This document shows, piece after piece, positions 8,273-30,796 of a stretch of DNA of 64,000 nt. This stretch comes from a virus. Taxonomy: Duplodnaviria; Caudoviricetes. The stretch lies in the IMG/VR virus record IMGVR_UViG_3300025150_000002, positions 64,001 through 128,000 of that record. One strand, written 5' to 3'. Made by a program: the position numbers and the translations under genes. The notes below the pieces were generated by a model, which searched no databases, had not been told where the DNA came from, and worked only from the letters and a program-made list of their open reading frames with translations. Each line of letters opens with the position of its first letter. The first letter of the stretch is position 1.

Positions 8273-8794
8273 TCAGGTTACCGGCGTGCCTGGGATGACC
8301 TCTACATTATTAACCGACATCGTGAGTGACTCGATGGATACGTCACTTGAGGAGGCATCCATGTTCGTTGACGGGGTCCACCCCTTAGGAACGCAGCCAA
8401 ACAGGTTGTAAACCCGTCTGGGAATCAACTTATCGCGGCCCGTCTGCACGACCGTGAAATTCCGACGAGGGGCACCTGTTCCCCACACCGCCTGGAAGAG
8501 CCACAGGTAGAAGTCCATAGAAAGCGATGTGACTGCAGATTCGATCGTACAATCACCAGCTTTCAGGAACCCAAGGGGAACCTCGTGGGCCCACGGCCAA
8601 TTTCCTTCCTGAATCGTCTTCGTCTGCATGGTGACGTTCGGGATGGAGATGGACTTGAAGCTCAGCAATTGTCCCTCGGAGGCTCCCTGGCCGACCTTGA
8701 ATGGAAACGCCACAGGCAGCAGGCTGATCGTGGGAATGTCCAGCAGGTAGAACGAGTAGTTCTGGAGTGGATCTGTGTCTTCGGCTCTAGCCAT
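8273..8794 (-). CDS. Tail tube protein, T4 gp19-like (paralogue 2)
   Basis: DPLQNYSF N-terminus, QEGN motif, DFYLW, and C-terminal DASSSDVSIESLTM typical of contractile tail tubes. Confidence 0.85.
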   Translation of the reverse strand: MARAEDTDPLQNYSFYLLDIPTISLLPVAFPFKVGQGASEGQLLSFKSISIPNVTMQTKTIQEGNWPWAHEVPLGFLKAGDCTIESAVTSLSMDFYLWLFQAVWGTGAPRRNFTVVQTGRDKLIPRRVYNLFGCVPKGWTPSTNMDASSSDVSIESLTMSVNNVEVIPGTPVT

Positions 8795-9070
8795 AACCGC
8801 CTCGTGTGAGCATCATTGAGTCTATCAGAATACGTCCGACAGCCGAGGCCTGATTACCCGTATGTTACAGGAACCCCCACAAGGAGATTTCCCATGCGTC
8901 TGCTCGAACAGCTCTCTGTTTCAGTCAATCGACGGAACACAAGTAGCTACCACTTCTAGGTAGGCGACTAGAGAGCGGTTCTCTAGGGCCTGCCAAGTAG
9001 CGGTGCTACCAAGCAGGAGCTAGAAGTAAACGACAAGCGCAGCATCGAGGCCGCGTTCGCGAAGGCGAAC

Positions 9071-9850
9071 GTGCCTCTGGAGATCACCAAGCGGTCCATC
9101 AACCGCCGGCTGATCAACGGCGGTGGCGGGCAGATCGTCCAGATGGGCATCGTCCGTGACCGTCAGGGTAACGAGATCATCCAGATGAACATCCCCGACG
9201 GGGAGGACATCAACGTGCGGGCGCTCGGGGCCGACCCTGAGCACCAGCAAGTCGTGATGATGGTCCACGAGCCCGACCGGAAGATCACCGAGCGGCGGTG
9301 GAACTCCGGGACGAAGCAGTTCGAGAACGCGACCATCAAGGTCCCCGGTGGGAAGCGCCGCTTCCTGGTGGGGATGGACGAGTGCCACCTCTTCATCGCC
9401 CAGATGCCCAACACGGCTGGGGCGACCTCGGTCAAGCAGGCTCACGAGGACCTGCGGCCCCGGGGCGTGCCGAAGGGCCGCAAGGCCAAGAAGCAGAAGG
9501 TGAAGCGGACCGGAGAGTGGTTCTTGACGCCCGCGAGCTCCGAGGAGCTCAAGGCGATCGAGGACCACATCAAGGTCTATGGCATCCGCAAGAAGGTTGG
9601 GATCGGGTCTCACCTGGGCCGCATGCGGGGTCGCCCGCACGTGGTCAGCGAGTCCGTCGTCGTCGGGTTCCGCACCCGCATCGAGGACCCCACGACTGGT
9701 CAGCACCGGATCCTGGTGGCCCGCCGGGGGACGGAGTACGTCCGGGGCCGGATCCTCCACCCCGACCACAAGGTGGTCGATGTGAAGGTCTGGTCCAAGG
9801 TGACCATGAACGCCGAGGACCGGGCCGCCGGGGCCCAGTGGGTGGATTAG
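9071..9850 (+). CDS. Hypothetical phage protein; true start unclear (see finding at 8894)
   Basis: Strongly GC3-biased ORF with RTGEWFLTP and VRGRILHPDH motifs. Coding-like sequence extends upstream of the GTG at 9071. Confidence 0.75.
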   Translation: MPLEITKRSINRRLINGGGGQIVQMGIVRDRQGNEIIQMNIPDGEDINVRALGADPEHQQVVMMVHEPDRKITERRWNSGTKQFENATIKVPGGKRRFLVGMDECHLFIAQMPNTAGATSVKQAHEDLRPRGVPKGRKAKKQKVKRTGEWFLTPASSEELKAIEDHIKVYGIRKKVGIGSHLGRMRGRPHVVSESVVVGFRTRIEDPTTGQHRILVARRGTEYVRGRILHPDHKVVDVKVWSKVTMNAEDRAAGAQWVD

Positions 9851-9893
9851 GAAGTTGATTCAAGGGGCCAGGCGATCACCTGGCCCCGCTTCC

Positions 9894-10271
9894 TTAGATG
9901 CTGGCCAATCGGTCGAGGACGGTGGTATCGATCAGGCCGGCGATAACCACCTTGGCGAGAGGGTACGGCTCAACAGGATCTTCGGCCACCAACACCTCAT
10001 TCTCCATGTTGTCCAGATTCAGCCAGACCGGGATTTTGAAGAGCGAGCCGACCCGCGCCACCATTTGGCCAGGCGTGGACAGCCGGTCCGCAAACCACAC
10101 TCGTGGGGCAGAGACCTCAAGTATGGACGCTATTTCGGCGCTAACAACGAAAACAGCATCCTTATTACCGGCCTCACGGAACGCCAACAGCATGAATTGT
10201 GGCAACTGCCTGCAGTGCTCTTGCAGCGCGACGCCAGAAGGGGGTGTGTAACGCCAAGATACGGTGATCAT
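9894..10271 (-). CDS. Hypothetical protein, paralogue of 11235..11630
   Basis: Shares GxLxxIPVW..NEVLV.EDP..AK and a C-terminal LDRLA with the 11235 ORF. Confidence 0.65.
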   Translation of the reverse strand: MITVSWRYTPPSGVALQEHCRQLPQFMLLAFREAGNKDAVFVVSAEIASILEVSAPRVWFADRLSTPGQMVARVGSLFKIPVWLNLDNMENEVLVAEDPVEPYPLAKVVIAGLIDTTVLDRLASI

Positions 10272-10798
10272 TTGTCTTGGTAGCGGAACTTGAGGTGATC
10301 GTAGGTCAACAAGTTAAACTCGGGCGTGTTTGGGCTGATGGGCAGCAACGGTGTTGGGTCAAGCAAGTCGCCGGGCGGTTGATCCGTGATCCGCCACCAA
10401 CCAGTCGCCCGAGCGCCAGACCGCATAAGCTCCAAATGAAGCATGACCATCGGTCGGCCTTTGAACCGTTGAAGAACGGGTGCCACATAACCGATAATGT
10501 CACCCTGCTCGACGGATGCACCGACCTTTAGCCCTGTCGTAACCTCACCGTAGACGACCACACCGCTCGCACCCTCGACGAGTACAGCATCTGTAGGACA
10601 CCACCAAGACGACCCGGCCTTCTCGCCGGTGAAAGGCTCGATGTTGACTACCAAGCCTCTTTCTACAGCAACAACCGGAGTGCCAACCTCGCAGTAAAGG
10701 TCTACCCCGGTGTGCCGGTCGAACCGCCTCAAGGCGCCAAAAGAACCAGCGTTATCAGGCAACAGCGGATCAGCGAGTAGCGGCCAAATCCAGCTCAC
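10268..10798 (-). CDS. M23-family peptidase
   Basis: HTGVDL (HxxxD) and LHLE (HxH-like) zinc motifs, plus GTPVVAVERG. Confidence 0.8.
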   Translation of the reverse strand: MSWIWPLLADPLLPDNAGSFGALRRFDRHTGVDLYCEVGTPVVAVERGLVVNIEPFTGEKAGSSWWCPTDAVLVEGASGVVVYGEVTTGLKVGASVEQGDIIGYVAPVLQRFKGRPMVMLHLELMRSGARATGWWRITDQPPGDLLDPTPLLPISPNTPEFNLLTYDHLKFRYQDK

Positions 10799-11220
10799 TA
10801 CACCTCCCTCGCATCACCCAGGTAAACCGGAACAGGATACAACCCGAACGAGAACCGAGGCCAACGTCCGCACGGGCATGAGTAGACGTAGATGTCCTCG
10901 GATTCGTTTTCGTAGGCGCCGTATACTCCAGGCGCACGGGTGAGGTCTCGGTTGCACGTGCAGTAGACCGCGTTGGAGTAGGCCGGGCCGCCGTTCTCTT
11001 CACAGTAAGGCTTCCCGCGTACGATACCCCCCGGGTGGTTTCCTGTCATGCGGTAACACTCCTCGCGCTTCATTCTGACCCAGATCTCGCCGTGGCACGG
11101 ATCTCCAAGTGTCTGTCGCTCCCAGTGACCACCCCAGAGTCGGCGGTAGACAGGTAGGAAGCTCAGGCAATGGTCAATGATGTAGAAGGGCGAGAAAAGA
11201 ACCAGTAGAACCATATTCAT
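10798..11220 (-). CDS. Hypothetical protein, Cys-containing with hydrophobic N-terminus
   Basis: 140-aa ORF abutting the M23 gene. Confidence 0.55.
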   Translation of the reverse strand: MNMVLLVLFSPFYIIDHCLSFLPVYRRLWGGHWERQTLGDPCHGEIWVRMKREECYRMTGNHPGGIVRGKPYCEENGGPAYSNAVYCTCNRDLTRAPGVYGAYENESEDIYVYSCPCGRWPRFSFGLYPVPVYLGDAREV

Positions 11221-11234
11221 GGTGTAGTTCTACC

Positions 11235-11630
11235 TCATCTGATCTGAGCCAGTCGGTCGAGCGCCCGGACGGTTACAAAGTTGATGAGCCTGATTTTGGC
11301 CCGAGGCTGAAGGTCCTCTGGATCGTCGACGATGAGAACCTCATCGGCCCGAACGGCCGTGTTGGCCCAGATAGGGACGCCCCCAAGTCTTCCGGCCGCA
11401 ATGGAACTTCCCGTTGGCCCGTCCCATAAGAACTCTTTACCCAGGAAGGCCGAGGATGTGCAGATCAACATCGATATGGTCATAGGGTGAGACAGAATCA
11501 CTCCCTTTCCTCCGGTCTCGAAAAATATCTGCACCATCATGAGCGCTAGCCCTTGCATGTGATCTATGGCGGAGACGCCCATAGGGATGGCGTGGTCCCA
11601 CATCCGGGTGAAGATCTGCTCGTTCTGCAT
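11235..11630 (-). CDS. Hypothetical protein, paralogue of 9894..10271
   Basis: See the 9894 ORF. Ends in ALDRLAQIR. Confidence 0.65.
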   Translation of the reverse strand: MQNEQIFTRMWDHAIPMGVSAIDHMQGLALMMVQIFFETGGKGVILSHPMTISMLICTSSAFLGKEFLWDGPTGSSIAAGRLGGVPIWANTAVRADEVLIVDDPEDLQPRAKIRLINFVTVRALDRLAQIR

Positions 11631-11718
11631 CTTTAGGCTGCCCTGTCTAGTGTAGACTGATGCTACTGCCGGTGTTACCCGGGCTTAGACCTACCAGCCT
11701 ACATCACAAGGTCTCACG

Positions 11719-11919
11719 ATGCACCTCCACCGAAACTTCGTATGGACTCTGAACCTGAGCGACCGAGAGCTAAAGGTCATCATCAAGTGTCTTCAGGATG
11801 AAGATCTCACAGACGATGAGCAGAGCCTCGTCGACAAGCTGTCCGAGACACTGCCCGAGAACGCGGTTCGCCTAGAGCGGGTCAGTACGGGCCGCAAGCG
11901 CAATACGCCCAAGAATTGA
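11719..11919 (+). CDS. Small hypothetical protein
   Basis: 66 aa with AAGG SD, followed by a terminator hairpin. Confidence 0.65.
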   Translation: MHLHRNFVWTLNLSDRELKVIIKCLQDEDLTDDEQSLVDKLSETLPENAVRLERVSTGRKRNTPKN

Positions 11920-11936
11920 CCCGTCCGTACACGGAA

Positions 11937-11961
11937 ACGCGGCCCACGAAATGGGCCGCGT
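11937..11961. terminator. Hairpin terminator between convergent genes
   Basis: 10-bp stem ACGCGGCCCA/TGGGCCGCGT with a 5-nt loop, between the 11919 (+) and 11998 (-) stops. Confidence 0.7.
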
Positions 11962-11997
11962 CTCTACATCCAACTGAATCGGCGGACTTGACGGGGG

Positions 11998-13143
11998 CTA
12001 GTTAACCACCAGCTCCACCACGATCTTCTTGGCGTAGTAGTTGATGAGACTATGGCTAACTCCGAGCTCGTGGGCGATGTTCTTCTGGGTCTTACCGTCA
12101 GCTAGTAGACCAGGGATGGATGCGATCTGCTCTGTCGTGAGCTTGGCATTCCCGTGCCTTTGAATCAGACTGGGAAGTCCCCAGGCGCAGCCGCGCAGGA
12201 TCGCAGAAATCTGCGCCGGTGTCACTCCATACTCGACAGCCAGTTGCTTACCGGTGACCTGACTGGCTGACTTAAGACCCTTCTGGTATCTGGTTCTGAT
12301 CTCATCAACCTGTGCACGGCTCAGCTTTGCCATACCGTGGCTGTCGCCTCTAGGTCGGTTTGATGGGTTTGCCTTGAGCGCGGCTTGCATTTTATCGATG
12401 TTACGCCTAGCGTAATCTGGATCCCTGTTCCACGGGTGTCTCTCGCCGCGCAGCACCTTCTCTGGATACTTGCGCGTCCAGTGATCATCGCCGGTGGGTG
12501 CGGTCTGGCCGCCATCAGCGTCGTTGGTCAGAAGGTTCAATCCTATTGAACTGATGTGCTCGACTTCGAGCTTCAGCGCCTCGGACTCGGTGAGCTTCTC
12601 GGCAATCCTGCGCTCAGCAGGACTGAGCCCCATCTTGAGCAGCTTGCGGATCACAGAGAACTTATGACCCTTCTTTCCCTTCTTCGCCTTCCTGATGTGA
12701 TCGCCGATCCTCGGGCAGTGCCGATCCGAGCCCTTACCCACGTAGAACACCTTGTTGGTGTCTGGTCGGATCAACTCGTAGACGTAGTAGATAGGGGTCG
12801 GATCAAGGTCTGGCGAGTCAGGGTCTGCCTGCTGATGGACCCTTGGCCGGGAGACTCCTCTACGGGAGCACCGTACACCTTGCTGCTCCCTCAATCCATC
12901 AATGAGCGTGTTCGCAGAATCCTTATCCAGGTTGGTAGCCTTTACCTCCTGGACAGGTGCAATCCCACGAGAGCGGAGGAGTCTCACCTCGTCATACCTG
13001 CGACCGGACGCCCCTGTGGCGGCCTCGTTGATGAGCCTGGTAAGACTGCTGTTCTTATGGGACTTGGCGGATTGTCTAGCAACGTGAATGACCCGACCGT
13101 CAGTCGGGTCATTCAGCGCGACCACCGAATAGCGTAACGACAT
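11998..13143 (-). CDS. Free-standing GIY-YIG-family homing endonuclease with C-terminal HTH repeats
   Basis: YYVYELIRP..VFYVGKG catalytic motif, EALKLE..I..IG..LLTN, and two AKL(S/T)..Q HTH modules. Confidence 0.8.
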   Translation of the reverse strand: MSLRYSVVALNDPTDGRVIHVARQSAKSHKNSSLTRLINEAATGASGRRYDEVRLLRSRGIAPVQEVKATNLDKDSANTLIDGLREQQGVRCSRRGVSRPRVHQQADPDSPDLDPTPIYYVYELIRPDTNKVFYVGKGSDRHCPRIGDHIRKAKKGKKGHKFSVIRKLLKMGLSPAERRIAEKLTESEALKLEVEHISSIGLNLLTNDADGGQTAPTGDDHWTRKYPEKVLRGERHPWNRDPDYARRNIDKMQAALKANPSNRPRGDSHGMAKLSRAQVDEIRTRYQKGLKSASQVTGKQLAVEYGVTPAQISAILRGCAWGLPSLIQRHGNAKLTTEQIASIPGLLADGKTQKNIAHELGVSHSLINYYAKKIVVELVVN

Positions 13144-13220
13144 GTGAGCCCCAGTATTACTGGTCTCACTCTGGTCGCGTCAGGCTGGAAATTCAACCTA
13201 AATTCGAGACCTTCTCGTAA

Positions 13221-14005
13221 CTACGTTACTACCAACTCGATGGAAACTTCCTCAACCGCAAGACTGAGCTCCTGGATCGCGACATCGGAGCTCGATGCAT
13301 CCTTGTCACCGGTCGGCTTGACAGAGGTCGGGAAGACCTCCTTCAGCTGGATCACCTTCGACGGCGAACCGTCGATGCCGAACTCGTCGGCGATGTGGTA
13401 CTCCTGGATGGTGATGTCAGAGCGGTAGGTCTCCCCACCGTTGATGCACTTGAAAATCCAGACCAGGAAGTCCGACTCCTTCTTCACGACGCCCTTGCTC
13501 AGAGAGCAATCGCCGACCTTCGGAATCCCCGGATACTTCCGGGTGTACTTATAGACACCCTCACGGTACTCGACCATGTCGACCGTGAGGTCCGGAATGC
13601 TGGCCGTCCGGAACCCGGCCACAGGGTCCAGGTTCCCGCCGGCCGGGTCGACGACGTGGAAGCGGAAGTTCGTTATGTTACGAGTTGGTCGCACCCACCA
13701 ACTCTCCTCGACTTTCACCGAGGCCCAGACTATATCATCACCCTTTCTGGGGTGCCGCGCACTTCGGGCTCGCTTGAGCCCTACTCCCTTACGGGATAGT
13801 CGTTGAACCTTCCACAGAGCTTGTGGCTTGGCTGCTGATTATCCAATTCCTGAACTTTTCAAGCCTTCACGTTTGATCTTCCGATCTCCGCAGTGGCATC
13901 AGGACTCTAAGGACTTCCCAGCAATTCACGCAGTTTTCGCTACCGGATCACTCCGGTAGGCCACTATTCCTAATGGTACAAGTCGGTGTCAACAGCACGT
14001 GCCAT
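13221..14005 (-). CDS. Tail tube protein, T4 gp19-like, split by a group I intron (exon 1 14005-13973, exon 2 13670-13221; 160 aa spliced)
   Basis: AAAGGAG SD, then MARAVDTDLYH. Joining to NFRFHVVD aligns without gaps to paralogue MARAEDTDPLQNYSFYLLD. Tube motifs YREG, KYPG, DASSSDVAIQELSL. Confidence 0.9.
13671..13972 (-). ncRNA. Group I self-splicing intron (IA-like, 302 nt, no internal ORF)
   Basis: P1 is CCAU|UA-GGAA-UA-GUGG with a U.G pair at the 5' splice site. Core elements: P GAAUUGCUGGGAA (13915-13927), Q AAUCAGCAG (13832-13840), R GUUCAACGACUA (13797-13808), S GAUAUAGUCUG (13726-13736). P7.1/P7.2 and P9 hairpins present. Terminal G at 13671. Confidence 0.92.
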
Positions 14006-14032
14006 GACGATCTCCTTTGATCGAGTTTCAAA

Positions 14033-14869
14033 CTACGAACAAACCCTGTCTGACCGACCATCGGCCAACACGCCACGTCGTTTGAGTTCCCAGTAGTCCC
14101 AGATCTGTAGGTTCAGATCTGGACGGCTCTCTTGAAGAGCCTTGATCTTCTTCATCTGTTCTGGACTCTCGACCCCCTTGACATCGACCACGGTGGTATC
14201 AGCACCGTCGTAGATCCAGAAGTCGGGGGTATAGCGTTTGGGCCTGTCGTCGACCTCGACCTCGTAGGTGACAAGCTCGTAGTCCCACGACATTCCCTGC
14301 TCATCAAGCCAACTCGCCATTCCAAGTTCCCAAGTTGACCGCATTTTGAACTTACGGCCGAGCTTGTCTGTGAAACTTAGTCGTGGACCACCACCCCATG
14401 CCGCTGGTCGCATACCCACACCGTTGCGCGATAGGACAAGACAGATAGCGGATTGGGAGGTGCCGTAGCGACGAGATAGGGCAATTGTGTCCTCGCCGCC
14501 CAAGTAAAGCCGGACCATCTCCGACTCTTCGGCATCAGACCACCGCCTGTTACGGGTGCCTGTCCTATCGACGTCCACACCTTGCTTGTGGAGAGTTTTG
14601 TAGACGCAATCAGGCTTAACGTCCATCTTCGCAGCGATGTCGGGCCCGGATACTCCCTGGTTGTAGAGCTCAACCATCTGCATCTGCTGTTTCTTTGTGG
14701 TCTTGATATGAGTCAAGTTCTTATACAGTAGCTTGACGCCGAGCTTCTTTGCGCGACAACGCGTCGTCGACTGGTCCCGGTCAAGCTGTTCGGCACACCA
14801 CTTCCCTCCGCGAGTAGGGTAGTTCTCGCGGATGAAAGAATCGTCAGAAGTGATCCAAGGGCGTCCCAT
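14033..14869 (-). CDS. Free-standing PD-(D/E)xK-type homing endonuclease with N-terminal HTH repeats
   Basis: MRSTWE..W..YE..RYTPDFW..VDVKG. Paralogous to 26588..27766. Confidence 0.75.
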   Translation of the reverse strand: MGRPWITSDDSFIRENYPTRGGKWCAEQLDRDQSTTRCRAKKLGVKLLYKNLTHIKTTKKQQMQMVELYNQGVSGPDIAAKMDVKPDCVYKTLHKQGVDVDRTGTRNRRWSDAEESEMVRLYLGGEDTIALSRRYGTSQSAICLVLSRNGVGMRPAAWGGGPRLSFTDKLGRKFKMRSTWELGMASWLDEQGMSWDYELVTYEVEVDDRPKRYTPDFWIYDGADTTVVDVKGVESPEQMKKIKALQESRPDLNLQIWDYWELKRRGVLADGRSDRVCS

Positions 14870-14871
14870 CC

Positions 14872-14907
14872 TCAACTCGAAAGATCTGTGTCAACGGCTC
14901 TGGCCAT
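14872..14907 (-). pseudogene. Orphan duplicate of the tail tube 5' end (MARAVDTDLSS*)
   Basis: AGGAG SD plus ATG GCC AGA GCC GTT GAC ACA GAT CTT, encoding the same 9 residues as tube exon 1. Confidence 0.85.
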
Positions 14908-15022
14908 GTCGTCTCCTGCTTGCGCCTTCAGTCTACCGTGTTGGCAGAGGCTGCATCACTCGCGCATCACGAGTGAGTCTAGCAGAATCGTAGCATGTGG
15001 TCCAGGCTATCGATGCTCCGAA

Positions 15023-15526
15023 TTATCTACGCCACTTGGTCCAGGCGGACTTGTTACCGACCAAGTGCTCCAACTGATGAATAAGCTGCACGAACCGTGG
15101 GTTGCAGAGCGGTGTCAAACCCCCCTGAGGTGCTCTCAACCTCTGAACACGTTCAACCGCTTGCTGCGGGCCCATGCCAGCGACCTTCATCAAGGTGAGC
15201 GCTGAAACCAGTGAGGACCTGTTCAAGCCCATGGCACAAGACGAAAGACATGACTTCCCATCGCGGAGACGATCGCTGAACAGATCAGACGCCTTGTCGG
15301 CGCGCACTGCGGTCTGCGTCAGCTCGTCTTTCTCTGCCTGTGGGTTGTCGTCGTAGCCCATTTTGATGAGCTCGTAACTACCGCTCGGGTCGTTCGGCTG
15401 GTACTCCTGGGCAAAGAGCCCGATTACGTGAATCCGGCCATCTGGTTGGCGCAAAAGCTGGGTTACATCGGTCAGGTCACCCTGCCAAAGTTGCGCACCA
15501 GACCTATGAGTGAAAAGTCGATCCAT
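15023..15526 (-). CDS. Dual-specificity/tyrosine phosphatase-like protein
   Basis: CX5R active-site loop SCAMGLNRS. Confidence 0.75.
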   Translation of the reverse strand: MDRLFTHRSGAQLWQGDLTDVTQLLRQPDGRIHVIGLFAQEYQPNDPSGSYELIKMGYDDNPQAEKDELTQTAVRADKASDLFSDRLRDGKSCLSSCAMGLNRSSLVSALTLMKVAGMGPQQAVERVQRLRAPQGGLTPLCNPRFVQLIHQLEHLVGNKSAWTKWRR

Positions 15527-15590
15527 GTCCTAATTGTATCCGGGGTGTAAGCTAACCAAGGGCGCATCAGCGCTCAATGCTGAATCCTGA

Positions 15591-16100
15591 ATGCTGAACG
15601 GGGGTGCGGTGCCGACAGACAGGAGAATGTTGTTCATCGAAGCCCTGGCAGGGATATCTGCTAAGCCTACTCGACGCAGGCGCGGAAGCGCTAGGTGCTA
15701 CGGGCCACCGTGTGAAATCAACGACTGTCCTGGTCAGACAGTGGGCAACAAGCCTTACTGTCTCGATCACGTTCACCTCATGCCCTACGCGGCCAAAATC
15801 CAGGAACGCGAGGCCGCCAGAGATGTCGAAATCGCGAGCGCAGACGGTCCGCCACTAGATGGGTTCGTCGCCCAAGACCTTCTCGGCGCGATCAAGCTGA
15901 CGCAGTCATCCATACCAGCCCTTGCTCGTGATCTTCGTGTGCCGCAAAAGGTCGTGGACAAGCTGGTGCGACAGCTCATAAAACTCGGCAAGGTTAGGAT
16001 TCGTCGGTCGAAGCGCAGCGTCTACGTGATCCGTATTCCAGACCCTAGCGACGATTTTCCTGGATCAGCCGTAGAACCTCCGGACGAATCGAGCGAGTGA
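15591..16100 (+). CDS. Hypothetical protein with Cys/His motif and HTH-like C-terminal half
   Basis: CEINDC..YCLDH, then IPALARDLRVPQKVVDKLVRQLIKLGKV. Likely start is the ATG after AGGAGA near 15627. Confidence 0.55.
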   Translation: MLNGGAVPTDRRMLFIEALAGISAKPTRRRRGSARCYGPPCEINDCPGQTVGNKPYCLDHVHLMPYAAKIQEREAARDVEIASADGPPLDGFVAQDLLGAIKLTQSSIPALARDLRVPQKVVDKLVRQLIKLGKVRIRRSKRSVYVIRIPDPSDDFPGSAVEPPDESSE

Positions 16101-26587: not shown

Positions 26588-27766
26588 TTAGACGGAACCT
26601 CTTCTTGTCCTGTTTATACCGCGACGCTTGATCTCTCCATGGACCACATCGCGGCTCAGTCCGGTCTTCTGCGCAACCGTGGTGATGGAGTCGCCTGCGG
26701 CGTAGAGATTTGCGGCCCGATCGCGGTCCTCCTGAGGAACCCGGGCCCGGTTCGACTGAGCCTTGGTGGTAACGCGGCCCGTCGACTTCAAGAAGCTGCT
26801 TACGGTGCTGGAACCCCTCTGGATAACCTCGGCAATATTGGCGTAGGACATGCCCTCGTCGAACAGGTTCATCGCCTGGAGTCGCTCCTTGTTCGACATC
26901 CTGGAAGGAGATCCAGCAAACTTGACGCGAGCCGGCTGGTTGCAAATCTCTACATCAAGGATGCCTCTCTTCTTGAGATCGGCCTCCTCCCAAACCTCGA
27001 ACGGGAGCTCCGGGTGGTCCTGCCTGAAGAGGTTCATGCGGCGCTCACATGCCTCGGACAGCCAGCCCTTGACCTCGATGATCTGGGCTACCGACCCATC
27101 AGTTGCGTAGACCCAGAAATCCGGCGTGTAGCGACGGCGCTTACCGTCATCGTCTACTACATAGCTCTTGAGCTCGTAGTCCCAGAGTGCTCCCCGGTCG
27201 TCCAACCACTGAGCGGTGCAGACCTCCCACAAGCTACGCATAAGGTGCTCACGACCCCTGGCGTCGGACCACCTGAGCCCTACGGACTCCAGATGATTGC
27301 GCCGTTGAACCCCAGCGTCGTCGAGCGCCTTATTGATCGCGTCTCGGGAGCACTTGAACTTGATGGCCAGGAAACTAGAGGAGAACCCGTTGGTGTAATG
27401 TTCGACGATGGTCTGCTTGTCGCCCTCATCAGAGATCCGTGGCGGGGCTCCGGAGGGGCGGAAATCGTCGTAGCCGGTCTTGAGCAACCTTCGCCTTATG
27501 GTCGATGCGTCGGTGTCGAACTTCTCAGCAATCTCAGATAGCGTTTGGCCGCCAGTGTAGAGATTGGCGCACTGGTCTACATCAACGGCTGTCAAGGCTC
27601 TACGCCGCTTAGTTCGGCGTCGTGAAACCCCCACCTCATCAATGATCCTGTAAGCCGTCTGGTGGGAACAACCAACTAATCTGGCGATTTCGTTGGGACT
27701 TTTACCCTCCTTGGCCAACTCAATGATTTGTAAGCGCTCTTGATTGGATAGGCGACGTCCAGACAT
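26588..27766 (-). CDS. Free-standing PD-(D/E)xK-type homing endonuclease with multiple HTH repeats
   Basis: MRSLWE..WDYE..RYTPDFW..IEVKGW. HTH modules on both sides. Paralogue of 14033. Confidence 0.75.
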   Translation of the reverse strand: MSGRRLSNQERLQIIELAKEGKSPNEIARLVGCSHQTAYRIIDEVGVSRRRTKRRRALTAVDVDQCANLYTGGQTLSEIAEKFDTDASTIRRRLLKTGYDDFRPSGAPPRISDEGDKQTIVEHYTNGFSSSFLAIKFKCSRDAINKALDDAGVQRRNHLESVGLRWSDARGREHLMRSLWEVCTAQWLDDRGALWDYELKSYVVDDDGKRRRYTPDFWVYATDGSVAQIIEVKGWLSEACERRMNLFRQDHPELPFEVWEEADLKKRGILDVEICNQPARVKFAGSPSRMSNKERLQAMNLFDEGMSYANIAEVIQRGSSTVSSFLKSTGRVTTKAQSNRARVPQEDRDRAANLYAAGDSITTVAQKTGLSRDVVHGEIKRRGINRTRRGSV

Positions 27767-27865: not shown

Positions 27866-30796
27866 CTAGATGATAGCACTAGTGCTAGCAGTTCCAGCAG
27901 GTTGCGTCAAGTTAAATATGACAAATTCAGCTGGCTTGTTCGGCGAGAAGCCGATGTCGATGATCACCTTGCCCTGATCCATCGTCACCTGGCTGTTGTT
28001 GTTGCCGTTGCACTTGACGAAGAAGGCCTCCTCCTGGGTGTTACCGGAGAAGTACCCCAGACGAAAGAGCGAGCTGTAGTAGCCCCGGAGAGCTGTCTCG
28101 ATCTTCTGCCAGAGCTGCGGCCCGTTGTTCTCGAAAACCGTCCACTGCAGCTGCAGCTTGGTGGTGTACATCAGGAAGATGTGGAGTTGACGAGCGTTGA
28201 CGTAGCGCCAACGAGCCTCCTTCGAGAGGGACCGCGCTCCGTTGACGATGAACCCGGTAGCAACACCCGTTGGGAGAGGGTTGATTCGCGACTGGTAGAG
28301 GTTGTCCTGATCCAAGCGGGAGAGCTTGATCTCCGGTCCGACCGTTCCAGGCGCGTCCAGTGCCCCATCGACGATCCCCGCAGGGCTCTTTCCTACGTTC
28401 TTGTTCCGAGCGGTCTTCGCATAGACGCCAGCGGCGAAGGGCGACGCCGGGATAAGCTCAGGTAGCTCGGTCGAGTCGTTCAGGAAGTAGACGTTCGGGT
28501 AGTAGATGGCCGCGTTCTTGGTGTTGAACGCCTGAGTCACCAGCACGTACTGGATCGCCTCTGGCACCGTCGTTCCGTTCGCTAGCGCAAAGATCCCGAA
28601 CCGATCCTGGCGCGCATCGCAGAAGTCAACGATGTCCGCCTGGACGAAGGCCGAACCCTCGAAGTCTGGGACGACGACGTTGACCGGCTCCTCGATCAGG
28701 TCCAGAGCGTAGATGCCCTGCTTGGACCCCTCAAGGGTTGGGTTCGAGACATCGTTGCGCGTGATGACGGTGCCGTCCGTTCCGCCCGTCATCTGGTACT
28801 GAACCGCCGAGGACAGCTTCGTGTAGGCCGCCGTGATTGGCGTCGAAGCGGGCGGAGGAACAGCCCAAGTGAAGTCCAACGCTCCGGTGTTGTAGTCGAT
28901 CGTGTTCTCACCGGCGGCATCCACGTCCCCCACAATCACACCCAGCCCGTTGTCCTGGGCGTATTGACCGGTGTTGTAGAGCACATCGATCGTAGAACCT
29001 GTGAGAGGGGCGGATGTCGTGGTGAGTGAAACAGCACCGGTATCGGCGTTGATCACCGACGCTGTCGTCACGTCACCAAGCAGGTTGCCGGTCGTGTTGG
29101 CCCACACGTTGCCGAGGGCGATGTAGTCGACGTAGAAGAACGTACCGGCGATCGGGGCTACTAGTGTAGTCACCTCGATCGGTCCGGATCCAACAGACGA
29201 GGCTGTCTGACTATCGACCAGGTCGATAGTGTTGATGCCGCCACCATCAATCGAGCCGAGTAGCGGGACATCAACTTCCAGGTTGTTGAAATAGACCAGG
29301 TCGATGGTCGCCGTACCGCCGGTAGTCACAATCGCGCCGGGCGCGAAAGACCCACCCGCGATGTTACCGACACGGGCCACGCCCGAGGAAAAGGACAGGA
29401 CGTCACCTGTGACAGCACCCTGCGTGAACGTGTCACCGGGGGCGATGGCCCCTACGATAGCGCTGAGCTCCATCGTAGCGACGTTATCCTTGGTGATGAC
29501 GCTGGATACGTCGTGGTTGGCGACTACAGTCGACAGGGCTACAAGCTCGGCGGTGGTGCCGGTTAGAGCCCCAGTGTCGTAATTGACTGTACCGCCGAGA
29601 GGTAGTGCACCACCGGATCCGGTTAGGTTGCCGGCACCGTCGTCGGTGATGGTTGCCAGACCAATGCCATTCACGTTGACAGAGATCGCCAGCGTACCGG
29701 GGTGAACCGGTACGGATGCCAGAGGTGTTCCAGCCAGGCTGTAGGTCGCCGCAGTGCCACCGATGGTGGTTAGTGTCTGCGGCGCGGCCGCAGCACCAGC
29801 GTACTTCAGACGGAAGACCGTAACCTCCCGGTGAACCGGATTGTCTACGACGCCCGCATTGAAGGTGAACTCCTTGTTCGCACCGTCGATCAGTCCAGCA
29901 CTGGCTGGCAGGACCTCGTTCGCCACCGAAGACCGCTGGTAGAAGATCCGAGTGGACCCCTCCACCACAGGCAGATTGGTGAGCTGAAGCTCGAAGGCAG
30001 TGTTGGTGCTGTTGATTGTTCCTGAGGTCGGAGTGGTCGGCACGTGCTTGGTGGTACCGGACACAGCCGTGAGCTTCAGGGTGTTCGAGAGCACCGGCAC
30101 GTTGGCCAGCGATGCGATGAACCGCTGGGCTAGTGGTGCGCCACCACCAGTGCCGATCGACTCTGACAGTACGGTAACTGGAAGCATCGCCGTCGGCGTA
30201 CCGCCGACACCGATGGTCGTGGTCACCAGGAGACTTGGCCGACGGGGATCCTGAATCACGTTCAGGAGGTAGTCGGAGGCCGACGGGTCGTCGAACTGGA
30301 CCGCCTCGTAGGTCTCAACCGCATCGTCGAATGCCGGGTTGAAGTCCGCCGGGGCCAGGATCTGAAGGTCGTACTTCTCCCACGAGTTCGTGGTGTAGTC
30401 GAGGAAGTTCCGGTTACCCGAGACTCGGATCTTGAGGTCGTTACCCCACACACCCTGTCCGTTGGCTGTGAAGGTCCACTTCTCAGGACCAGGCGTCGCG
30501 TCGATGCTGACCGATGCGAAGGTCGAATCAGCCGGTGCAATGCGGTTGATCCAGGCCCTCTCTCCGCCAGTTCCGAAGAACGCCCGGATGGCCTGGGGAA
30601 CCACACCGCGCGTGTTGACCGGACCGAACACGCGAGTGAAGTCCTCAACAGACCTCACCTCGATAGGGTAGTTGGTCGGACCCTTCTGGGTCCAACCTAC
30701 GACGCCCATCTTTGCGGGCGAGAACTGATCGGGTGCGCGGGCCGGCGCCTTCTCCTGCCCGTAGACACCTGCTGACCGGTATTCAACGATCGGCAT
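27866..30796 (-). CDS. Contractile tail sheath protein (976 aa, large internal insertion)
   Basis: N-terminal AGVYGQE..VGWTQKGP..FTRVFG. C-terminal MTGGTDG, LYQSRINP, GARSLS, RYVNARQL, FENNGPQLW, IGFSPNKPAEF. Confidence 0.92.
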   Translation of the reverse strand: MPIVEYRSAGVYGQEKAPARAPDQFSPAKMGVVGWTQKGPTNYPIEVRSVEDFTRVFGPVNTRGVVPQAIRAFFGTGGERAWINRIAPADSTFASVSIDATPGPEKWTFTANGQGVWGNDLKIRVSGNRNFLDYTTNSWEKYDLQILAPADFNPAFDDAVETYEAVQFDDPSASDYLLNVIQDPRRPSLLVTTTIGVGGTPTAMLPVTVLSESIGTGGGAPLAQRFIASLANVPVLSNTLKLTAVSGTTKHVPTTPTSGTINSTNTAFELQLTNLPVVEGSTRIFYQRSSVANEVLPASAGLIDGANKEFTFNAGVVDNPVHREVTVFRLKYAGAAAAPQTLTTIGGTAATYSLAGTPLASVPVHPGTLAISVNVNGIGLATITDDGAGNLTGSGGALPLGGTVNYDTGALTGTTAELVALSTVVANHDVSSVITKDNVATMELSAIVGAIAPGDTFTQGAVTGDVLSFSSGVARVGNIAGGSFAPGAIVTTGGTATIDLVYFNNLEVDVPLLGSIDGGGINTIDLVDSQTASSVGSGPIEVTTLVAPIAGTFFYVDYIALGNVWANTTGNLLGDVTTASVINADTGAVSLTTTSAPLTGSTIDVLYNTGQYAQDNGLGVIVGDVDAAGENTIDYNTGALDFTWAVPPPASTPITAAYTKLSSAVQYQMTGGTDGTVITRNDVSNPTLEGSKQGIYALDLIEEPVNVVVPDFEGSAFVQADIVDFCDARQDRFGIFALANGTTVPEAIQYVLVTQAFNTKNAAIYYPNVYFLNDSTELPELIPASPFAAGVYAKTARNKNVGKSPAGIVDGALDAPGTVGPEIKLSRLDQDNLYQSRINPLPTGVATGFIVNGARSLSKEARWRYVNARQLHIFLMYTTKLQLQWTVFENNGPQLWQKIETALRGYYSSLFRLGYFSGNTQEEAFFVKCNGNNNSQVTMDQGKVIIDIGFSPNKPAEFVIFNLTQPAGTASTSAII

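Follow-up and report, generated by a model that had tools for sequence, protein, structure and literature searches.

A group I intron lacking an open reading frame in a tail tube gene of an uncultured groundwater myovirus, and a candidate partner nuclease at the start of the same gene

Introduction

Tail tube genes of Staphylococcus myoviruses are known hosts of group I introns. In phage Twort, orf142, a gene with three group I introns, encodes the tail tube protein (PMC11878797). In the kayviruses 812, A3R, 676Z, Fi200W and P4W, the tail-tube gene contains two non-coding introns and lies adjacent to a putative endonuclease gene, and in derivatives the introns and the nuclease were lost together (PMC6445280). 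Here we analysed a window of 64,000 nucleotides of viral DNA (bases 64001–128000 of the 203.5-kb IMG/VR virus record IMGVR_UViG_3300025150_000002, estimated to be 89% complete), in which a group I intron without an open reading frame (ORF) interrupts a tail tube gene. The locus resembles those of Twort and the kayviruses in two respects. A contractile tube gene with one or more small ORF-less group I introns has a free-standing nuclease gene next door, and the presence of intron and nuclease varies jointly between close relatives, as in the Staphylococcus myoviruses (PMC11878797, PMC6445280). In contrast to those systems, the tube protein belongs to the PF06841 gp19-type family, and the phage is an uncultured groundwater phage with a GC content of 58% in the window. 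Furthermore, the gene has only one intron, very close to its 5' end and with splicing predicted from sequence. The nuclease gene lies upstream, encodes another fold and has its own insertion point in the start of the tube gene.

Collaborative (trans) homing has been described for the psbA intron of cyanophage S-PM2 and the free-standing nuclease F-CphI (Zeng, Bonocora & Shub 2009; PMC6083498, PMC3984707). F-CphI uses an Endo VII motif, and its cleavage at the intron insertion site was shown. That system and the present locus would have in common a catalytic domain of the Holliday-junction-resolvase type that has turned site-specific, as well as a proposed logic in which the intron prevents self-cleavage and owes its mobility to the nuclease. 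Unlike in that system, the predicted domain is here a T7 endonuclease I-like (PD-(D/E)xK) domain fused to helix-turn-helix (HTH) repeats, the nuclease gene lies inside the 5' end of its target gene with a duplicated start, and relatives carry the intron at five neighbouring sites.

Two other groups of phage introns are relevant. Cluster J mycobacteriophages have group I introns in capsid and tail genes, the splicing of which was shown by reverse transcription PCR (PMC3706429). As would be the case here, these introns lie in late virion structural genes, so that virion assembly depends on splicing, and one of them is small, ORF-less and located in a tail gene (PMC3706429). In contrast to the present phage, the Cluster J phages are siphoviruses, the tail gene is that of a minor tail protein, and no linked upstream nuclease cassette was described (PMC3706429). 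The T4-type introns of subgroup IA2 (td, nrdB, nrdD and the intron of the SPO1 DNA polymerase gene) belong to the same Rfam family and have the same P7.1/P7.2 architecture, but they mostly carry their own endonuclease ORF and reside in genes of nucleotide metabolism and replication. A first-pass annotation of the window had implied that its arrangement is rare. This was overstated, as ORF-less tail-tube introns beside a free-standing nuclease (PMC11878797, PMC6445280) and introns in capsid and tail genes (PMC3706429) had already been published.

Results

Intron identity and splice product

The minus-strand segment 13972–13671 is very probably a functional, ORF-less, self-splicing group I intron of the subgroup-IA type, located after codon 11 of the first gp19-family tube gene of a groundwater myovirus of ~200 kb. 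The features of the locus are listed in Table 1. Sequence comparison has shown the identity of the ribozyme, its boundaries, the restored reading frame and, across relatives, selection on its structure.

Rfam model RF00028 (group I catalytic intron; gathering score 50 bits) matched positions 13982..13706 (-) over its full length (1–253 of 253) with a score of 75.1 bits (E = 3e-17), and this was the sole match across the entire 203.5-kb record. The P1 helix consists of six base pairs (C13976-G13961, C13975-G13962, A13974-U13963, U13973.G13964, U13972-A13965 and A13971-U13966) and is closed by a GGAA loop, with U13973.G13964 as the wobble pair at the 5' splice site. The intron also contains the P7.1 and P7.2 hairpins, P9 and one extra 3' hairpin, and its terminal base is G13671 (omega G). 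Its first three bases form an in-frame TAG. No meaningful ORF was found inside its 302 nt, and its GC content was 53% versus 58% for the window.

Exon 1 opens with ATG at 14005, preceded by AAGGAG at 14017–14012, and the junction CAT|AAC joins it in frame to 13670..13221 to give a protein of 160 amino acids (aa). The tube protein would arise by this joining, and therefore its production would depend on splicing. No other frame-restoring G was found near the 3' end of the intron. Residues 1–45 of the spliced product were identical to those of the uninterrupted homologue P0001 (94% identity overall). A search among 5.8 billion proteins yielded 102 relatives, mostly of 159–163 aa, nearly all of which start with MARxxxTDxYxNFRFHVVDPAGGNLDPVAGF; about 90 homologues of 159–163 aa begin with MARxxxTDxYxNFRFHVVD. 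In the closely related virus L003, the tube gene is uninterrupted and encodes 160 aa with the same N-terminus; a search of L003 with Rfam at a relaxed threshold revealed no hidden intron.

Exon 2 encodes a full-length PF06841 (T4 gp19 tail tube) domain, which spans profile positions 3–133 of 134 and scored 61 bits against a cut-off of 28.2. The spliced product aligned with the uninterrupted paralogue at 8273–8794 (31% identity, E = 1e-25), and a tail sheath gene is present in the same genome at 27866–30796. Without the splice, the ORF track places the start of the gene at GTG 13718 (MKVEESWW...), such that the first 16 codons are the 3' end of the intron. This start has no counterpart in the homologues, which all keep the MARxxxTD start. 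Similar errors occur in public predictions: the N-termini of P0008, P0053, P0071, P0087 and P0092 (from loci L007, L010, L023, L009 and L011, respectively) are truncated or false, and the false ones are translated from the 3' end of the intron (e.g., MKVEENQRKR... and VKAGEVNRKR...).

The first-pass annotation had reported the ORF-less group I intron, its P1 with a U.G pair and GNRA loop, its core, P7.1/P7.2, P9 and terminal G, the loss of 302 nt at CAT|AAC, the alignment of the restored frame with the paralogue at 8273, the false N-terminus in the ORF track, and a contractile tail tube gene flanked by two free-standing nuclease genes. All of these observations were borne out by the results.

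Conservation and covariation of the ribozyme

Homologous introns were identified in eight further, mutually diverged lineages (L002, L007, L009, L010, L011, L023, L024 and L192). All were ORF-less and 294–327 nt long. We aligned eight of the homologous introns and compared their consensus fold with two controls, in which pairing partners were slid by 1–3 columns or columns were shuffled 500 times. The fold comprised 86 pairs, 60 of which showed double compensatory changes. Slid partners gave only 10–15 covarying pairs and the shuffles at most 38, while the fraction of paired cells was 95.5% in the consensus fold versus 31–42% with slid partners. The 60 compensatory pairs among 86 provide strong comparative evidence that the ribozyme is under purifying selection.

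The nested consensus fold cannot display the pseudoknot formed by P7, the guanosine-binding helix, but this helix covaried as well (from GACUA/UAGUC to GACCA/UGGUC in L024). Two covarying hairpins between the 5' strand of P7 and P3' (alignment columns 222–233 and 237–252) represent P7.1 and P7.2, elements of subgroup IA, the class to which the introns of T4, SPO1 and Twort belong. The P1 U.G pair was kept in seven of the eight aligned relatives; the eighth, L010, was mis-aligned by its shifted insertion site, and by eye it pairs GACU/GGUC. Each of the nine homologous introns had a terminal G, preceded by a conserved CGTAACA tail (GTAAGA in L023).

Splicing would follow the established group I chemistry, a two-step route initiated by guanosine: the guanosine would attack behind U13973, and the exons would be ligated at the end of the intron, behind G13671. 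In P1, the pair U13973.G13964 would set the 5' splice site, and the terminal G13671 the 3' splice site. Translation of unspliced RNA would stop at TAG, the first codon of the intron, and this stop would keep ribosomes out of the folding ribozyme. Two points weigh against a functional intron. Inspection by eye revealed no convincing P10 helix with the beginning of exon 2, and we infer splicing from conservation only.

We give hardly any credence to a decayed, non-splicing intron, with the tube gene either a pseudogene or expressed as an altered protein from GTG 13718 and with the paralogue at 8273 supplying the tube. An open frame does run from GTG 13718, but that start is absent from the homologues with their uniform MARxxxTD beginning, the intact catalytic core shows compensatory selection, and exon 1 retains its ribosome-binding site and frame. 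Moreover, the exons were 94% identical to intact homologues at the protein level despite a DNA identity of only ~86%.

The core of the intron had ~70–78% DNA identity to many phage introns, and the core motif is generic for phage-type introns. A metagenome scan with this motif returned at least 120 contigs; among the matches listed, only L192 fell in the clade of the tube-gene introns. Scored with their own profile in nhmmer, the tube-gene introns reached 221–307 bits (121 bits for the divergent L023), versus at most 141 bits for 119 other metagenomic introns with the core motif among the matches listed. By these profile scores, the tube-gene introns are a tight clade of their own.

DNA nearly identical to that of the phage was found in one hot-spring metagenome and in numerous metagenomes of groundwater and aquifers. 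When compared over 11900–15600, contigs of four other runs (groundwater, aquifer and hot spring) spanned both intron boundaries with 0 differences; no joint of an intronless DNA allele was seen in these contigs, the coverage of which was fragmentary. Contigs of the same aquifer and groundwater runs also matched the intron core only (13725–13813) and then continued into unrelated sequence. Hence, these communities harbour further group I introns of this class, in different genes or organisms.

Five insertion sites

Numbered from the A of the tube-gene start codon, the introns occupy five sites within 24 nt of orthologous tube genes (Table 1). At every site, the predicted spliced product is the conserved N-terminus of the intronless homologues, and the last exon base is a U paired with a G of a guide that matches the local exon. 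The exon and guide pair as CCAU/GUGG at nt 33 and 48, as CCGU/GCGG at nt 28 and 42, and as GACU/GGUC at nt 25. In the window, codon 11 reads CAT and codon 16 reads CAC, whereas L007 has the opposite and carries its intron after codon 16. In these sequences, it is the choice between synonymous codons that makes a site usable or not. The tetranucleotide and guide shared within two pairs of sites are the expected trace of guide-directed relocation of the reverse-splicing type; we offer such relocation as a hypothesis, drawn from few cases and weakly supported trees. For L009, an alternative pair of splice sites (5' after GATTT, 3' after AACAG) was rejected, as it offered no P1 pairing and lost the near-invariant F and R.

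The upstream nuclease and its own insertion

The nuclease gene upstream of the tube gene ends 27 nt before the tube start. Its product scored 28.4 bits against PF05367, just below the cut-off of 29.1, and matched a PHROG family annotated as 'endonuclease' (E = 1e-9). A profile built from 11 nuclease homologues matched T7 endonuclease I in the PDB (1M0D, E = 3.8e-5). The catalytic residues are conserved across these 11 homologues: D218 (in YTPDF) and K233 without exception, E183 almost so, and position 231 as either D or E.

Just upstream of the nuclease gene, and overlapping its start codon, lies a stranded copy of the tube start, the context of which (caggagacgacATGGC) is common to the window, L002 and L003. 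In L003, L028 and L031, the nuclease ORF begins with MARAVE..., MARAAS... or MARAAAT..., i.e. it is fused to the original tube start. The stranded start and the fused nuclease starts therefore indicate that the nuclease cassette was inserted at nt 17–27 of the tube gene and brought a replacement start. In the window, the stranded start marks the insertion at nt 27. The replacement tube start differs synonymously from the stranded copy, and the introns sit 25–48 nt into the replacement copy.

We also considered a larger, ORF-containing intron that would extend from the stranded start (14881) across the nuclease gene as far as 13671. It was rejected because it would lose the conserved YH codons, because P1 pairs with the local exon 1, and because four intron-bearing relatives have no stranded start. 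In L002 (1798–2700) and L010 (3–188), the nuclease ORF lacks a stop codon; its frame continues across tube exon 1 and ends at the first in-frame stop of the intron. On a spliced transcript, the nuclease frame of these two lineages would run on into the tube protein.

Association of the intron with the nucleases

In each of the nine intron-bearing lineages (the window, L002, L007, L009, L010, L011, L023, L024 and L192), a homologue of the upstream nuclease directly precedes the tube start, compared with ~5 of 18 intronless close relatives. This count includes L010 and L011, which are contig-end fragments. Both the nucleases and the intron are absent from the naive relatives L083 and L084. In addition, the junctions of the nuclease cassette (nt 17–27) adjoin the intron sites (nt 25–48), which is circumstantial evidence at most for collaborative homing.

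From these patterns, it seems somewhat probable, although far from assured, that the intron and the upstream T7-endonuclease-I-like nuclease are partners in collaborative homing. The nuclease would cut intronless, cassette-free tube genes within their very conserved first ~50 bases. Repair would then copy in the nuclease cassette and co-convert the intron, which is only some tens of bases distant. In the carrier, the intron would split the presumed recognition sequence of the nuclease, and thereby protect the genome that carries it.

Several observations count against such a partnership. The nuclease is also present with intronless tube genes in L003, L028, L031 and L077, and hence the intron is not needed for self-protection in these lineages. 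The tally of 8 versus 0 obtained before L010 was scored gave a Fisher p of ~0.002, but the lineages are phylogenetically non-independent and this value overstates the association. Furthermore, the intron and tube-gene trees (8 taxa) are broadly similar, which also fits plain vertical inheritance; with support values of 44–96%, these trees are too weak to separate vertical descent from transfer. At synonymous sites of nt 1–60, nuclease-bearing intronless genes showed no clear immunity signature relative to naive genes.

These observations bear on another explanation, in which the intron is functional but essentially immobile and vertically inherited, and the nuclease is an independent selfish gene aimed at the same highly conserved 5' end, such that the two share a hot spot and an ancestry rather than cooperate. 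The congruent trees, an intron divergence that scales with gene divergence, and the four lineages with a nuclease but no intron are all in line with it. Yet the nuclease accompanies the intron in each of nine diverse lineages (52–83% gene identity), far more often than in the intronless relatives. Moreover, the insertion sites differ even between close relatives such as the window (nt 33) and L007 (nt 48), with 83% gene identity, which argues for repeated movement; the introns of these two are only 74% identical. An immobile intron is the main alternative, which we consider less likely than not.

The second flanking nuclease gene encodes a GIY-YIG protein and begins 77 nt past the tube stop. 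GIY-YIG enzymes such as I-TevI are classic homing enzymes of phage introns. The protein matched PF22945 over residues 130–215 (34.6 bits against a cut-off of 27) and contains the motif YVY...FYVGKG. In favour of mobilisation of the intron by this nuclease instead of the upstream one, it is a bona fide GIY-YIG protein with DNA-binding HTH domains, encoded close to the tube gene. However, among the nine intron-bearing lineages the gene is present only in the window, L002 and L007, and it also occurs in the intronless L003 and L032. Its own insertion point is elsewhere, too. The GIY-YIG ORF ends with IVVELVVN* (11998–12024), the native tube C-terminus in relatives, followed by a terminator-like hairpin (~11930–11975), while the present tube gene ends with the variant tail SIELVVT*. 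From the IVVELVVN* end it follows that this cassette entered the tube gene within its last ~8 codons, at a distance of ~450 nt from the intron. Mobilisation by the GIY-YIG nuclease is thus very unlikely.

The first-pass annotation had proposed that one of the neighbouring nucleases mobilises the intron. This proposal is supported in part: the upstream PD-(D/E)xK nuclease co-occurred with the intron in 9/9 lineages, whereas the GIY-YIG gene did so in only 3/9, and the upstream nuclease also accompanies the intronless genes of L003, L028 and L031.

If collaborative homing with the upstream nuclease is accepted, a wider but tentative picture can be drawn. The first 17–48 nt of the tube gene may be a battleground of two cooperating selfish elements, with the nuclease inserted, along with a spare gene start, at nt 17–27 and one intron family repeatedly re-inserted within its presumed recognition sequence, at nt 25, 28, 33, 42 and 48, as a shield from self-cleavage and a hitch-hiker. 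The paired tetranucleotide/guide sites might then be natural footprints of a protein-coding gene in which introns switch sites in a guide-directed manner, by a process of the reverse-splicing type. We consider this picture possible rather than probable.

Gene order and neighbouring genes

Naive relatives have the gene order sheath ... tube 1, tube 2, and in L084 a phosphatase-like gene, tube 1 and tube 2 abut. Compared with L084 (3501–4569), ~4.4 kb of extra genes part tube 1 from tube 2 in the window (8795–13220), although the two are adjacent in naive relatives. These extra genes comprise the GIY-YIG gene, an M23 peptidase gene, small paralogous ORFs at 9894–10271 and 11235–11630, and a plus-strand ORF at 9071–9850. 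A second paralogue of the upstream nuclease (35% identity, a frame of 392 aa with an extra C-terminal HTH region) lies at 26588–27766 (-), directly downstream of the sheath gene at 27866–30796. Such a placement is typical of free-standing homing genes.

Table 1. Features of the tail-tube locus in the window, and insertion sites of the homologous introns in the tube gene.
Feature	Position	Strand	Basis or lineages
ORF-less group I intron, 302 nt, subgroup-IA-like architecture (P7.1/P7.2)	13671..13972	-	RF00028 and covariation
Exon 1 of tail-tube gene, 11 codons (MARAVDTDLYH), ending in U13973	13973..14005	-	N-terminus identical to uninterrupted homologues
Shine-Dalgarno sequence AAGGAG for exon 1	14012..14017	-	direct sequence reading
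P1 helix, exon CCAU and intron UA against internal guide UAGUGG, GGAA loop	13961..13976	-	sequence reading; guide replaced in relatives
Exon 2 of tail-tube gene, 149 codons and stop, PF06841 T4 gp19 family	13221..13670	-	Pfam 61 bits; 102 homologues
Free-standing nuclease gene, 280 aa, N-terminal HTH repeats and C-terminal T7-endonuclease-I-like PD-(D/E)xK domain	14033..14875	-	profiles, catalytic residues
Stranded copy of tube start (Shine-Dalgarno sequence, ATG, 9 codons MARAVDTDL, then SS*)	14872..14907	-	overlapped by TTG start codon of nuclease gene
Free-standing GIY-YIG nuclease gene, 381 aa, C-terminal HTH domains	11998..13143	-	PF22945 34.6 bits
Uninterrupted second gp19-family tube paralogue, 173 aa	8273..8794	-	PF06841 54.8 bits; 31% identical to spliced product
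Intron insertion site	nt 25 of tube gene		L010
Intron insertion site	nt 28 of tube gene		L024, L192
Intron insertion site	nt 33 of tube gene		window, L002, L011, L023
Intron insertion site	nt 42 of tube gene		L009
Intron insertion site	nt 48 of tube gene		L007

Discussion

What is new at this locus is the gp19-type host gene in uncultured groundwater phages and the fold of the candidate partner nuclease. Also new are the insertion of that nuclease in the start of the same gene and, clade-wide, five guide-matched intron sites within 24 nt. The tube gene would add a gp19-type gene of groundwater phages to the short list of structural genes that need RNA self-splicing. Intron-aware annotation would correct a core virion protein across an entire clade of large phages known from uncultured sources.

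The lineages compared here offer a natural experiment on the cooperation between ORF-less introns and free-standing nucleases. They can also address changes of insertion site by guide-directed integration, for which, according to a review, direct evidence from group I introns is lacking (PMC3984707). If the role of the upstream nuclease is confirmed, the T7-endonuclease-I-like fold would join the scaffolds of homing endonucleases, in parallel with F-CphI and Endo VII.

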